A stretch of 4,647 bases of DNA. Origin: a virus (taxonomy: Duplodnaviria > Heunggongvirae > Uroviricota > Caudoviricetes). The DNA lies in IMG/VR virus record IMGVR_UViG_2657245521_000007; one strand, 5' to 3'. The first letter of the stretch is position 1, and each line of letters starts with the position of its first letter. Of this stretch, positions 219 through 4,647 are shown in pieces. The notes beneath the pieces were generated by a model, which was not told where the DNA came from, did no database searches, and was given only the letters and a program-made list of their open reading frames with translations. Both the position numbers and the translations under genes were made by a program.

Positions 219-512
219 ATGAAAAAAATGCTACTCGCTACTGCGCTGGCCCTGCTTATTACAGGATGTGCCCAACAGACGTTTACTGTTCAAAACAAAC
301 CGGCAGCAGTAACACCAAAGGAAACCATCACCCACCATTTCTTCGTCTCTGGAATTGGGCAGAAGAAAACTGTCGATGCAGCTAAAATTTGTGGCGGCGC
401 AGAAAATGTTGTTAAAACAGAAACCCAGCAAACATTCGTAAATGGATTGCTCGGTTTTATTACTTTAGGCATTTATACTCCGCTGGAAGCGCGTGTGTAT
501 TGCTCACAATAA
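219..512 (+). CDS. bor: Bor outer-membrane lipoprotein (serum-resistance moron, Iss homologue)
   Basis: 97-aa ORF with a lipoprotein signal peptide and lipobox LITGC. The sequence is near-identical to phage lambda Bor as I recall it. It is on the strand opposite the lysis genes, as in lambda, with an AT-rich upstream region (about 111-180). Confidence 0.92.
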   Translation: MKKMLLATALALLITGCAQQTFTVQNKPAAVTPKETITHHFFVSGIGQKKTVDAAKICGGAENVVKTETQQTFVNGLLGFITLGIYTPLEARVYCSQ

Positions 513-1782: not shown

Positions 1783-1884
1783 TGTTTCGCCGCCGACAAA
1801 AGGCCGGGACGTTAAATGTCAGAAATCAGGCTCACGGGGTAATTTAACGACAAAGCACGGAGTTGATGCTCCCCGCAAGCCTGG

Positions 1885-1910
1885 AATAAAAAAGCCAGCA
1901 TGTAGCTGGC
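1885..1910 (-). terminator. Intrinsic terminator, minus strand (second of two in the Q-S spacer)
   Basis: Minus-strand RNA reads GCCAGC-UACAU-GCUGGC (6-bp stem, 5-nt loop) followed directly by UUUUUUAUU. Stem at plus 1894-1910, A-run at 1888-1893. Confidence 0.45.
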
Positions 1911-1987
1911 AACAGAGGGTTAAGCAATATCAACTCAACAGCTGAAGACACCCTGGCTGGGGTACGTTGGAAGGATACTCACCGCCC

Positions 1988-2022
1988 AGAAACAGAAAAG
2001 CCCAAGGCTTTAAACCTCGGGC
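1988..2022 (-). terminator. Intrinsic terminator, minus strand (first of two in the Q-S spacer; tR'-like)
   Basis: Minus-strand RNA reads GCCCGAGG-UUUAAAG-CCUUGGGC (8-bp stem including one G.U pair) followed by UUUUCUGUUUCU. It lies about 70 nt downstream of the Q-like stop codon. Confidence 0.4.
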
Positions 2023-2079
2023 TTGAATTTGGATTACTGCCAGTGCGTACAACATTGGCAAAATATCAGATTTACATAA

Positions 2080-2108
2080 AATATATGATTTTTAATCCAG
2101 TTTTGCAA
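2080..2108 (-). promoter_or_regulatory. Candidate sigma-70 late promoter (pR'-like) overlapping the 3' end of the Q-like gene
   Basis: On the minus strand, TTGCAA (-35, plus 2103-2108), a 17-nt spacer, then TATATT (-10, plus 2080-2085). Its position just upstream of the two terminators and the lysis genes mirrors lambda pR'/qut/tR'. Hexamer match only; not tested. Confidence 0.3.
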
Positions 2109-2781: not shown

Positions 2782-2918
2782 GCGGCCGCTCCTTTCAGTG
2801 TTTTGGCGTAATTTTTCAGTATTCGGTAATCAGTCACGACAGAACCGGAAAACCGGTACAACCGCAGGCGCATCCAGCGAAGGCGGAGGTGTTCTGTGAT
2901 ATAAGATTCAAACGTCAT
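2778..2918 (-). CDS. ylcG: Small protein YlcG-like (46 aa), not in the ORF track
   Basis: My translation of the minus strand gives [50 protein letters not shown] overlap with the rusA stop (ATG at 2918-2916) and ATGA overlap with the Q-like start. Size and position match ylcG of the E. coli DLP12 prophage (between rusA and the Q gene). Confidence 0.5.
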
Positions 2919-3277
2919 TCGCCCTCCAGTTCTGTAATGGTCAGCTCCAGCTTCCCGCCTTTAACGATCGGCATCTTCACAACGCGGTAATCAACAACCT
3001 GCGCATCATCCAGCCAGAAACCTGCTTTAGTAAGTGCGTCAAAAGCGGCTTTTTGCAGATTATCCAGGTCACGGCGACGGCGATCCGGCATGTGGCACTC
3101 AATGCGGATTTTCACTGGCATAGCCAGGCCGATATCCAGCATGGAGCCTTTGATGATTCGGGCGACGTTATCGCGGTATGCTTGCCCCTCTGCGCTGATG
3201 TGCGTGCGCCCGCGATTATGGCGGTAATAGCGATTATTGCTCGGAGGCCAGGGTAATGTGATGCTGTAGGTATTCAC
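2915..3277 (-). CDS. rusA: RusA Holliday-junction resolvase (crossover junction endodeoxyribonuclease)
   Basis: 120-aa ORF starting [24 protein letters not shown]..., near-identical to E. coli prophage RusA as recalled. ATGA overlap with the ybcO stop. Confidence 0.93.
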
Positions 3278-3564
3278 GCCTTAATAACCCCCTCTTTCAG
3301 CCAGATAACCTGTGTTCTCGCCATACCTTCCAGCGCGCATTCTTTTGCATATCCAGCGTCAACAAAATGCGTGCGACGGTCGATCTCGTCGTGACAGGCA
3401 GAACATGCAATGGTGGCAATAAGGTCTGGCAGTTTAATACCGGTGCCGCACAATCCAGCCAGCCGGATATGTGCCAGTACAGACGTTTCAGAATTGCCAT
3501 TACATACGCCAGGGATTCTTACCTGGCATTCCCGACCACGCGCTGCTTTTCTCAAATCAGCCAT
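3274..3564 (-). CDS. ybcO: YbcO-like DUF1364 protein (Cys-rich, putative metal-binding nuclease)
   Basis: The ORF-track start at 3603 is a TTG. The in-frame ATG at 3564 ([14 protein letters not shown]...) is preceded by a strong Shine-Dalgarno AAGGAGGAG and gives 96 aa, the size of DLP12 YbcO. Conserved cysteines: CQVRIPGVC and CSACH. Confidence 0.85.
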
Positions 3565-3727
3565 GACTCCTCCTTGCTGCCAGTCGCAACCATTTTTTAT
3601 CAACCAGGCTGGCGGTATATCCGAGCAGTGTTGGTATTTCGGATGGCTTCAGCTCAGGCTTACGCTTACGACGATTTGGTACTCTGTAGATGTGTCCGTT
3701 CATGACACGAATAAGCGGTGTAGCCAT
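3557..3727 (-). CDS. ninE: NinE-like small protein (56 aa), not in the ORF track
   Basis: My translation of the minus strand gives [56 protein letters not shown], matching lambdoid NinE as recalled. The ATG overlaps the ybcN stop (TAATG) and the 3' end overlaps the ybcO start by 8 nt. Confidence 0.75.
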   Translation of the reverse strand: MATPLIRVMNGHIYRVPNRRKRKPELKPSEIPTLLGYTASLVDKKWLRLAARRSHG

Positions 3728-4182
3728 TACGCCTCCTGCTTGTCGCGCAGCAGCTGGAACTCGCAGCTCTGCGGAATAGTCAGGTTGCAGCCAATATTCA
3801 TCGCCCAGGCTTCAACCTTACACAGGAAGACATACATCTCTCCGGTATCAAGATCGGAGGTATGGCGTAACGACTGGATAGTAGTGATTTCGCCGGTTAC
3901 GACATCAACCAGGTCCTTGGTTTCATAACCGAGGTATGTGTGTTTGAGAGCATCTTTTACCCATGCTGCGGTAGCGAACGATTTCCCCCTGCTGATGAGG
4001 TATTCACTGATTTCGCTGTACCACATATGGCTGAGTGCATTCTGGGAAAGACTGCGTTTCTCTCGCCACGGTTTAAGCACCATGCGAAAGCATTTGCCTT
4101 CCTCCAGATAAGGCTGGATCTGCTGGCCGATAGCGGTGAAGTTGCCGCGATGTAATTTGATGCCGTCTTGTGAGAGGTTCAC
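3727..4182 (-). CDS. ybcN: YbcN-like DUF1367 protein (reported DNA base-flipping protein)
   Basis: 151-aa ORF starting [19 protein letters not shown]..., matching DLP12 YbcN as recalled. The start codon is GTG at 4182-4180, preceded by Shine-Dalgarno GGAGGT. Confidence 0.88.
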
Positions 4183-4332: not shown

Positions 4333-4354
4333 ATAATTATGCCGTGTTGATTTC

Positions 4355-4647
4355 TAGACTGGCCCCCTGAATCTCCAGACAACCAGTATCACTTAAATAA
4401 GTGATAGTCTTAATACTAGTTTTTAGACTAGTCATTGGAGAACAGATGATTGATGTCTTAGGGCCGGAGAAACGCAGACGGCGTACCACACAGGAAAAGA
4501 TCGCAATTGTTCAGCAGAGCTTTGAACCGGGGATGACGGTCTCCCTCGTTGCCCGGCAACATGGTGTAGCAGCCAGCCAGTTATTTCTCTGGCGTAAGCA
4601 ATACCAGGAAGGAAGTCTTACTGCTGTCGCCGCCGGAGAACAGGTTG
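4355..4647 (+). mobile_element. IS2 insertion sequence (IS3 family), orfA-proximal end, continuing beyond the right window edge
   Basis: Terminal sequence TAGACTGGCCCCCTGAATCTCCAGACAACC... followed by the IS2 orfA leader and ATG, matching the IS2 end as recalled. The element boundary is uncertain by a few bp. Only about 290 bp of the 1.3-kb element is in the window. Confidence 0.9.
4446..4647 (+). CDS. insC: IS2 transposase OrfA (InsC), 5' part; CDS continues beyond the window
   Basis: Translation [67 protein letters not shown] matches IS2 InsC as recalled (helix-turn-helix region). Shine-Dalgarno GGAG lies 6 nt upstream of the ATG. Confidence 0.92.

Follow-up and report, generated by a model that had tools for sequence, protein, structure and literature searches.

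Background

Three systems are classic for the study of Q antitermination and sigma70-dependent pausing. The late promoter pR' of phage 82, the model worked on in the laboratories of Roberts, Hochschild and Nickels, is among them. The Q-binding element (QBE) of Q-dependent late promoters is positioned between the -35 and the -10, and a transplanted 82 pR' fragment running from -31 to +30 carries the QBE as well as the pause element (PMC4914094). This pause element is a -10-like sequence which is nearer to consensus than that of lambda and is preceded by an extended -10 motif; in addition 82 pR' contains a G/C element (GCC) at +15-17 and a U at +25, with pausing at +25/+26 (PMC5001585). Pfam family PF06323 represents the Q82 family (PMC9388147).

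Short terminated pR' RNAs have long been known for lambda (6S) and for phages 21, phi80, 82 and P22 (PMC7547250). The RNA StxS of the Stx phages is likewise a by-product of a constitutive, Q-regulated late promoter of a prophage, and it provides an example of how such late-promoter leaders can gain regulatory roles (PMC7547250). A third RNA of relevance is IsrJ of Salmonella, a 74-nt transcript of the Gifsy-1 prophage that was detected and mapped, and that a plasmid copy also produces under the control of the isrJ promoter; deletion of isrJ lowers both invasion and effector translocation (PMC2330248).

Here we analyze the interval between Q and the holin gene in a stretch of viral DNA of 4,647 nucleotides, which is referred to below in its entirety as the window. 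The region is very probably a phage-82-type late control module (pR'-qut-tR') of a lambdoid prophage. This reading draws on the sequence elements themselves, fold statistics, conservation, covariation, and homology to phage 82 and IsrJ.

Genomic context of the window

All genes in the window are located on the minus strand, except bor (219-512, plus strand) and a fragment of IS2, and together they make up a right-hand part of a lambdoid prophage. In the order in which they would be transcribed, these are a YbcN/NinB-like gene (3727-4182), ninE (3557-3727), ybcO (3274-3603), rusA (2915-3277), ylcG (2778-2918) and gene Q (2092-2781), followed by a LydA-type holin as the first late gene (1465-1782, starting at TTG 1782 or else at ATG 1770), a lysozyme (1002-1478) and Rz (544-1005) with Rz1 nested at 603-785. 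The lysis cassette was assigned from Pfam matches (PF16083 and PF03245) plus the RefSeq annotation of the same prophage. At the far end, the IS2 fragment (4446-4646) comprises the first 67 residues of the TnpA repressor.

The Q gene encodes a late antiterminator of the phage 82 family with a length of 229 aa (Pfam PF06323, E = 9.6e-97). Its product is identical to phage 82 Q at 216 of the 229 residues (94%), and a sequence comparison with solved structures yields no match. The reading frame ends in ATT GCA AAA CTG GAT TAA, with the stop codon at 2094-2092. Measured from this stop, the holin TTG (1782) lies at a distance of 309 bp, the value given in the initial annotation, and the ATG used by RefSeq (1770) at 321 bp.

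Of 5426 complete E. coli genomes, 790 (about 15%) carry the Q-holin junction at a coverage of at least 80%, O157:H7 and ST131 among them. RefSeq gives the gene order in these genomes as ybcK-ybcN-ninE-ybcO-rusA-ylcG-Q-holin-GH24-rzpD/bor/ybcV/ybcW, with no annotated feature in the Q-holin interval. The host element is a defective DLP12-like lambdoid prophage of E. coli, whereas phage 82 is an active phage. The prophage has no early region. Upstream of ybcN the window has an IS2 element; in the O157 copy a recombinase gene is found there. Because the prophage is defective and its early region is missing, expression of Q and operation of the switch in this host are putative.

For comparison we collected 107 related loci. 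These are 24 loci from species-representative genomes and 80 viral contigs, which encode a Q at 61-100% identity to the window Q, plus the loci of phage 434, Gifsy-1 and O157. All 107 share the same design, spread over at least 12 enterobacterial genera (103 loci were recognized by fuzzy match and 4 by inspection). The Q stop is spanned by TTGCAA-N17-(T/C)ATATT; transcription would begin with AAATCTGATAT..., and a small hairpin precedes an intrinsic terminator. Further downstream the loci fall into different arrangements. The window arrangement, with the stem of a second terminator (T2) starting at +164, is present in 52 of them; 21 have a short leader as in phage 434, 6 a third type, and in 25 the first terminator (T1) is followed by other DNA.

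A probable late promoter across the end of Q

The promoter pR' is present on the minus strand (2108-2080) as TTGCAA-17-TATATT over the last Q codons, as the initial annotation had proposed, and each of the 107 related loci has this motif at an equal distance from the stop codon of Q. The -35 (TTGCAA, 2108-2103) is located inside the Q codons Ile-Ala-Lys and is the same in the records of phage 82 and phage 434. The 17-nt spacer AACTGGATTAAAAATCA (2102-2086) contains the Q stop and, judged by position, is where the QBE is expected. The -10 (TATATT) is found at 2085-2080. The final five codons of Q, with its stop, thus cover the -35 as well as 11 spacer nt.

With a score of 9/12 for the hexamers and a spacer of 17 nt, such a promoter is at chance level when judged by hexamer score alone (6 sites against 5.3 +/- 2.3 in shuffles). 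The case for a promoter is therefore based on conservation in the relatives. Among 44 unique sequences the mean column conservation amounts to 0.97 for the -35 and 0.96 for the -10; the neighbouring part of the Q reading frame reaches 0.82. Record X92588 of phage 82 closes with 22 bases that are equal to those of the window. They comprise the -35, the stop and 11 bases of the spacer, and the same holds for phage 434. Compared to the commonest E. coli variant, the spacer of the window differs at 2-3 positions (AAAAATCA vs AAAAAGCA). In Gifsy-1 the sequence AAAACTGGATTAAAA is kept although it no longer codes for the C-terminus of Q there, which points to a role at the DNA level, as promoter and QBE.

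These data also bear on a simpler reading, in which T1 and T2 are just the end-of-operon terminators of the nin-Q transcript and the hexamers at the Q stop are incidental. Both terminators do directly follow the last gene of the co-oriented ybcN-ninE-ybcO-rusA-ylcG-Q block, and the hexamer score alone leaves the promoter at chance level. However, the hexamers, their spacing and the downstream motif TG-n-TATnnT are conserved above the adjacent coding sequence across the 107 loci. Moreover, the Gifsy-1 block, although positioned after anrP, yields a separate RNA whose 5' end has been mapped and which a plasmid copy expresses from the promoter of the block. If T1 stopped unmodified upstream transcripts as well, this would not remove pR'. 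We consider this explanation extremely improbable and retain that of a late promoter embedded in the end of Q.

Projected onto the window, the 82 pR' fragment from -31 to +30 corresponds to 2104-2044. It coincides with the range of about 2040-2110 in which the initial annotation had placed both QBE and pause element, and by analogy with 82 pR' both would be located there. Between T2 and the holin no further promoter-like site was observed on the minus strand; the absence of a second promoter before the holin is consistent with Q-dependent lysis genes, without being proof of it. The highest hexamer score of the window belongs to a promoter-like site on the plus strand (2055-2082). We set this site aside as probably mirroring the A/T-rich pause and -10 sequences; its -35 half is not kept in relatives with the other leader type.

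Predicted start site and pause element

The predicted transcription start is A2073 on the minus strand, located 7 nt past the -10, which is the standard start distance; the position is uncertain by 1-3 nt. We infer this start by matching the window to the published description of 82 pR' rather than to an aligned published sequence. Only a start at A2073 puts GCC at +15-17 and U at +25, as for 82 pR'. The position falls within the range of 2070-2078 that the initial annotation had put forward, and the isrJ model of Rfam begins 3 nt further upstream, at 2076.

Counted from A2073, the initial transcribed sequence reads AAATC-TG-A-TATTTT-GCC-AATGTTG-T, and all four features described for 82 pR' fit. 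The candidate pause element is an extended -10-like sequence (2068-2060) consisting of TG at +6 and +7, an A, and TATTTT at +9 to +14. It is followed by the discriminator-like G/C element GCC at +15 to +17 (2059-2057; PMC5001585). Pausing would then be expected at +25 (U; T at 2049) and +26, that is at 2049-2048, by analogy with 82 pR'.

Conservation of this segment is strong. The mean over +1 to +7 is 0.98, against 0.64 over +26 to +40, and positions A1-A3, G7, T9, A10, T11 and T14 are invariant among the 44 unique sequences, whereas +12 and +13 vary freely. An invariant TG-n-TATnnT with free positions at +12 and +13 indicates that the pause hexamer is TATTTT at +9 to +14 (2065-2060). A GATATT had been suggested as the pause inducer. 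This sequence is indeed present (2067-2062), but its register is off, as it lies two bases upstream of TATTTT: in variants with TGATATCGT or TGGTATGTT the GATATT register would lose its critical final T, whereas TATnnT is always kept.

Phage 82 has the same Q family (94% identical protein), the same position of the promoter over the end of Q, and the same -35 and proximal spacer. Its described features agree as well: the pause element is extended -10-like, +15-17 is GCC, and +25 is U. The record of phage 82 does not reach beyond the Q stop, and within the leader the likeness to 82 is one to its published description. Phage 434 encodes a Q82-like Q (so named in its record) and shares the -35 and the spacer, but its initial transcribed sequence is different, with TGG-TATGTT as pause element. 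Its leader is also much shorter, has another terminator, and is followed by membrane-protein morons instead of lysis genes.

Two terminators and a predicted short leader RNA

Two intrinsic terminators upstream of the holin had been predicted, and both hairpins fold far better than shuffled sequences. T1 (tR') has a 12-bp stem at 2024-1998 on the minus strand, followed by UUCUGUUU; the U-rich tail extends to about 1990. Its fold reaches -18.4 kcal/mol (z = -4.4), and none of 200 shuffles is as good. In T2 the stem is 6 bp long, five of the pairs being G-C (GCCAGC/GCUGGC, 1910-1894), and is followed by U6, to 1885; here the fold is -11.9 kcal/mol (z = -3.7 against dinucleotide shuffles). T1 and T2 are the top two terminator-like sites of the window and are separated by an interval at 1989-1911. 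The U-tract of T1 is interrupted (UUUUCUGUUU), which we count against our best explanation.

Starting from A2073, the T1 stem covers +50 to +76 and the T2 stem +164 to +180, so that RNAs of approximately 80-85 nt and 187 nt are predicted. While the two terminators of the initial annotation are confirmed by folding, its RNA lengths of 70 and 170 nt are not retained. The predicted short leader RNA (2073-1990) is IsrJ-like and would be the analogue of lambda 6S. It contains a small hairpin (hairpin 1) at +13 to +37 (2061-2037), which is present in both the MFE and the centroid fold. Folds of the whole leader give z = -4.0 for 84 nt and z = -3.0 for 189 nt.

Some other candidates were rejected. 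A third terminator-like hairpin at 1877-1856 folds no better than shuffles (z = -1.2), and the same goes for a small conserved-looking hairpin at about 1945-1930 (z = +0.1). Two small minus-strand ORFs of 43 aa (1930-2061) and 35 aa (1844-1951) were dismissed, as they span terminators and non-conserved sequence.

The position of T1 is well kept in the relatives. In 25 of 25 unique leader variants, from at least 12 genera, the terminator stem ends between +68 and +82. At least four unrelated T1 stems occur at this place (AGCCCGAGGUU/AGCCUUGGGCU, AAGCCUCGC/GCGGGGCUU, AAGACCUCGCA/UGCGAGGUUUU and GAGCCCUGCGG/UCGUAGGGCUU), and within the E. coli type one pair changes from G-C in the window through G-U (locus L056) to A-U (L054). 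Structure is thus kept and sequence is not, as expected of a functional terminator. Similarly, the relatives have either the window form of hairpin 1 or a different hairpin at the same place. RNAalifold run on a MAFFT alignment of the 25 leader variants returned 3 spurious pairs and no usable consensus. Relatives swap hairpin 1 and the terminator among each other as modules that are not collinear. Leader structures were compared by means of per-sequence folds and a stem-by-stem table.

The tandem arrangement itself might be taken as a purpose-built double lock, selected for strict Q-dependence of lysis. Both terminators are strong, the spacing is fixed (the T2 stem starts at +164 in the 52 loci mentioned above), and leaky expression of the holin costs the host. 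The fixed spacing among the E. coli loci can be explained by the fact that these are near-identical (95-100% in the region), and other relatives have a single terminator before different downstream DNA. In L010 and L015 (Enterobacter) and L016 (Lelliottia), T1 and T2 flank a tRNA cassette with both sides collinear. According to ARAGORN and the alignment, a tRNA-Asn, or a tRNA-Asn together with a tRNA-Thr, directly follows T1 in these loci; past the cassette, about 50 nt are collinear with 1953-1911 of the window and are followed by a hairpin homologous to T2. The T2 stem covaries in relatives (GCCAGC, CCCGGC, GCCCGC). A tRNA-Arg is found further downstream in L002, L012 and L019.

Given these observations a double lock is the less economical explanation, and we consider it quite unlikely. 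Probably, as far as can be judged from these alignments, the history is modular: T1 travels with the leader, whereas T2 is the end of a tRNA cassette missing from the window, so that the two terminators are left about 113 nt apart. We hypothesize that the cassette was lost in the lineage of the window; its insertion in the relatives is equally possible. The window itself contains no tRNA according to ARAGORN, and a search for remnants between T1 and T2 gave weak local matches, none of them convincing.

Proposed operation of the switch

The start site, pause, Q loading and read-through in the following scheme are derived from published work on phage 82. RNA polymerase with sigma70 would use the promoter within the last part of Q and initiate constitutively near A2073. 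The polymerase-bound sigma70 would then re-engage TG-n-TATTTT at +6 to +14, causing a pause at +25/+26. Without Q, the polymerase would escape and stop at T1 (RNA of about 80-85 nt), and what leaks through would stop at T2 (about 187 nt). As a consequence holin, lysozyme and Rz/Rz1 would remain silent. With Q present, the protein would bind the QBE in the spacer and load onto the paused complex, and the resulting terminator-resistant polymerase would read T1 and T2 into the lysis genes. By this analogy, lysis may be strictly dependent on Q.

The description of the region in the initial annotation as a compact analogue of lambda pR'/6S/tR' is supported, and can be made more specific, as an 82-type pR' with a Q of PF06323. 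The logic is that of the lambda system: a promoter that follows Q and is constitutively active, with the QBE in its spacer, would be coupled to a promoter-proximal sigma70-dependent pause and to a short RNA that is terminated, and Q would allow read-through into the lysis genes (in lambda, S, R and Rz). Differences concern the Q family, which is unrelated (PF03589 in lambda, PF06323 here; PMC9388147), the pause position (+16/17 in lambda against +25/26; PMC5001585) and the RNA, which has 194 nt in lambda against about 80-85 nt here, with no sequence similarity.

Kinship with IsrJ

The 6S-like RNA expected from this arrangement has a homologue that has been detected: a search of Rfam returns isrJ (RF01393) as the sole match in the window, covering model positions 1-75 at 2076-1997, and IsrJ is a detected RNA of 74 nt (PMC2330248). 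The score of 30.4 bits (E = 0.0089) falls below the gathering score of 37 bits for this family. In relatives, however, the same model scores 41-100 bits and starts 16-19 nt past the Q82-type stop wherever Q is adjacent. Genera in which it scores are Citrobacter, Enterobacter, Scandinavium, Pseudocitrobacter, Phytobacter, Siccibacter, Leclercia and Atlantibacter (8 in total).

A direct comparison with Gifsy-1 shows that its promoter and positions +1 to +16 are nearly identical to the window, and that the leader has the same build of a small hairpin and a terminator hairpin. On the other hand, hairpin 1 and the terminator stem represent other sequence modules than those of the window. The two forms are connected by mosaic intermediates: L008 combines an IsrJ-type hairpin 1 with a window-type terminator, and L004-L006 combine a window-type hairpin 1 with an IsrJ-type terminator. 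The genomic position also differs, as the isrJ block of Gifsy-1 lies after anrP and is split from the Q82-type antQ by an isrK-orf45-anrP insertion. As the promoter-leader-T1 block of Gifsy-1 is IsrJ, a block homologous to that of the window makes a short terminated RNA in vivo. We think it likely, with good confidence, that the pR' leaders of Q82-type prophages and IsrJ form one RNA family.

This kinship raises the question whether the leader is mainly a free-standing sRNA gene, that is, a trans-acting, Hfq- or ProQ-bound relative of IsrJ which the host has kept in a dead prophage, with lysis control being vestigial. Several observations agree with such a role. Deletion of isrJ has a phenotype in Salmonella (PMC2330248), the pR' leader of Stx phages yields a working sRNA in StxS (PMC7547250), Rfam labels IsrJ as Hfq-binding, and IsrJ is listed among the ProQ-associated sRNAs. 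The module is present in the 790 of 5426 complete E. coli genomes mentioned above within a defective prophage, and its build is that of an sRNA, with a single-stranded 5' part, a hairpin, an A/U-rich linker and a terminator. Nonetheless, the sole strongly conserved segment of the RNA (+1 to +14) is fully explained by constraints on the DNA, namely the start and the pause element. Hairpin 1, linker and terminator are swapped as modules between relatives, and no conserved seed is seen outside the pause element. In addition, Q and the entire lysis cassette are intact ORFs, which argues that the switch is still selected or was only recently inactivated. A leader serving mainly as an sRNA gene is therefore rather unlikely in our opinion, and we keep to that of a late control module, bearing in mind that an sRNA role and a lysis switch are not mutually exclusive.

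A more specific version is that the E. coli copy of about 80 nt acts as a constitutive trans-acting regulator bound by Hfq or ProQ, in which the conserved 5' AAAUCUGAUAU serves both as pause element and as RNA seed. We mention this as a tentative idea and would judge it unlikely. StxS offers a parallel in origin only: it is released by RNase E, with a length of 74 nt, from a pR'-tR' leader of 258 nt and is associated with another Q family and another sequence (PMC7547250), and in the window it has no match by Rfam or by sequence.

Conclusions

The module in the window corresponds to the well-known pR'-qut-tR' arrangement of phage 82 and is in that sense already known; as a near-identical instance of a classic system it carries little weight as a discovery. 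Some modest uses can be named. The set of 107 loci from at least 12 genera can be read as natural mutagenesis, mapping the QBE region and the pause element of the 82 type. We also suggest that genome annotation could label the Q-holin interval, which is now left blank, with pR', tR' and the IsrJ-like RNA.

If the isrJ family is indeed the leader of Q82-type late promoters, then the isrJ promoter is likely to be the loading site of AntQ in Gifsy-1. In the literature on IsrJ/IsrK and on pR' leaders that we examined, we did not find either of these connections stated. The link between isrJ and the late leader would change the reading of the results obtained for IsrJ and AntQ in Salmonella.

Gene content around the late promoter

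In Gifsy-1 (L002, 1685-1883 and 2502-2608) the isrK region directly after antQ, the Q82-type gene of that prophage, has Rfam matches to c4-a1b1 (48 bits) and to the C4 antisense RNA family (69 bits). Because of these matches the isrK-orf45-anrP unit looks like a P1-type c4/ant immunity module. This immunity-like unit appears to be inserted between the Q82-type gene and that gene's own late promoter, and this promoter is the isrJ promoter (IsrJ being the Salmonella homologue of the short pR' leader RNA). The paper on IsrK mentions neither phage 82 nor any late promoter.

Six E. coli viral contigs (L057, L058, L062, L079, L088 and L089) keep the late promoter pR' and its pause element and then, after +26 (from about +27), continue into an unrelated, longer leader, where no terminator is found within ~90 nt. 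The switch marks a putative recombination joint just beyond the pause site.

Between the homologues of T1 and T2, the intrinsic terminators upstream of the holin gene, Enterobacter/Lelliottia relatives carry tRNA-Asn or a tRNA-Asn plus tRNA-Thr cassette (L010, 2289-2443; L015, 2274-2428; L016, 2289-2363), corresponding to interval 1911-1989 of the window. Other relatives (L002, L012 and L019) have tRNA-Arg(tct) farther downstream. The arrangement resembles Stx phages, which have tRNA genes downstream of pR'; the window contains no tRNA gene. The Rfam sRNA STnc100 is also found farther downstream of pR' in some relatives, at 82-85 bits (L004, 2171-2368; L012, 3171-3358), while the phage 434 match (L001, 2792-2996) is under threshold with 41 bits. 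STnc100 is absent from the window.

Two alternative starts are available for the holin ORF on the minus strand, TTG 1782 and ATG 1770, the latter being the RefSeq choice (the N-terminus from this region reads M-A-I-H-M). The paired starts might form a holin/antiholin motif of the dual-start kind; neither codon has an obvious Shine-Dalgarno sequence in front of it.

At the high-coordinate end of the window, directly upstream of ybcN, lies the left end of IS2 with the first 67 residues of the TnpA repressor (4340-4647; NF006928, E = 1e-43). The O157 prophage copy has the ybcK recombinase gene in its place. The prophage lacks its early regulatory region.

Predicted antisense sites at the late promoter

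The top-scoring promoter-like site of the window, TTGGCA-16-TAAAAT (10/12), is located at 2055-2082 on the plus strand and runs antisense to the start and pause region of pR'. The -35 half of this site complements +14 to +19, and relatives that have an IsrJ-type leader do not conserve it; the site is probably a mirror image of the A/T-rich elements and less probably an antisense-to-Q start.

A perfect match to the CII-type site TTGC-N6-TTGC (TTGCAATATCTTGC) is present at 2103-2116 on the plus strand. It is directed antisense, into Q. The equivalent site in the phage 434 record is labelled as CII binding site and paQ -35 signal. Among the related loci compared, the site occurs in the ~80 of E. 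coli type and is missing in the other genera. Its first half is shared with the palindromic pR' -35 hexamer TTGCAA, and CII, if bound at this predicted site, would occupy the -35 element of pR'.
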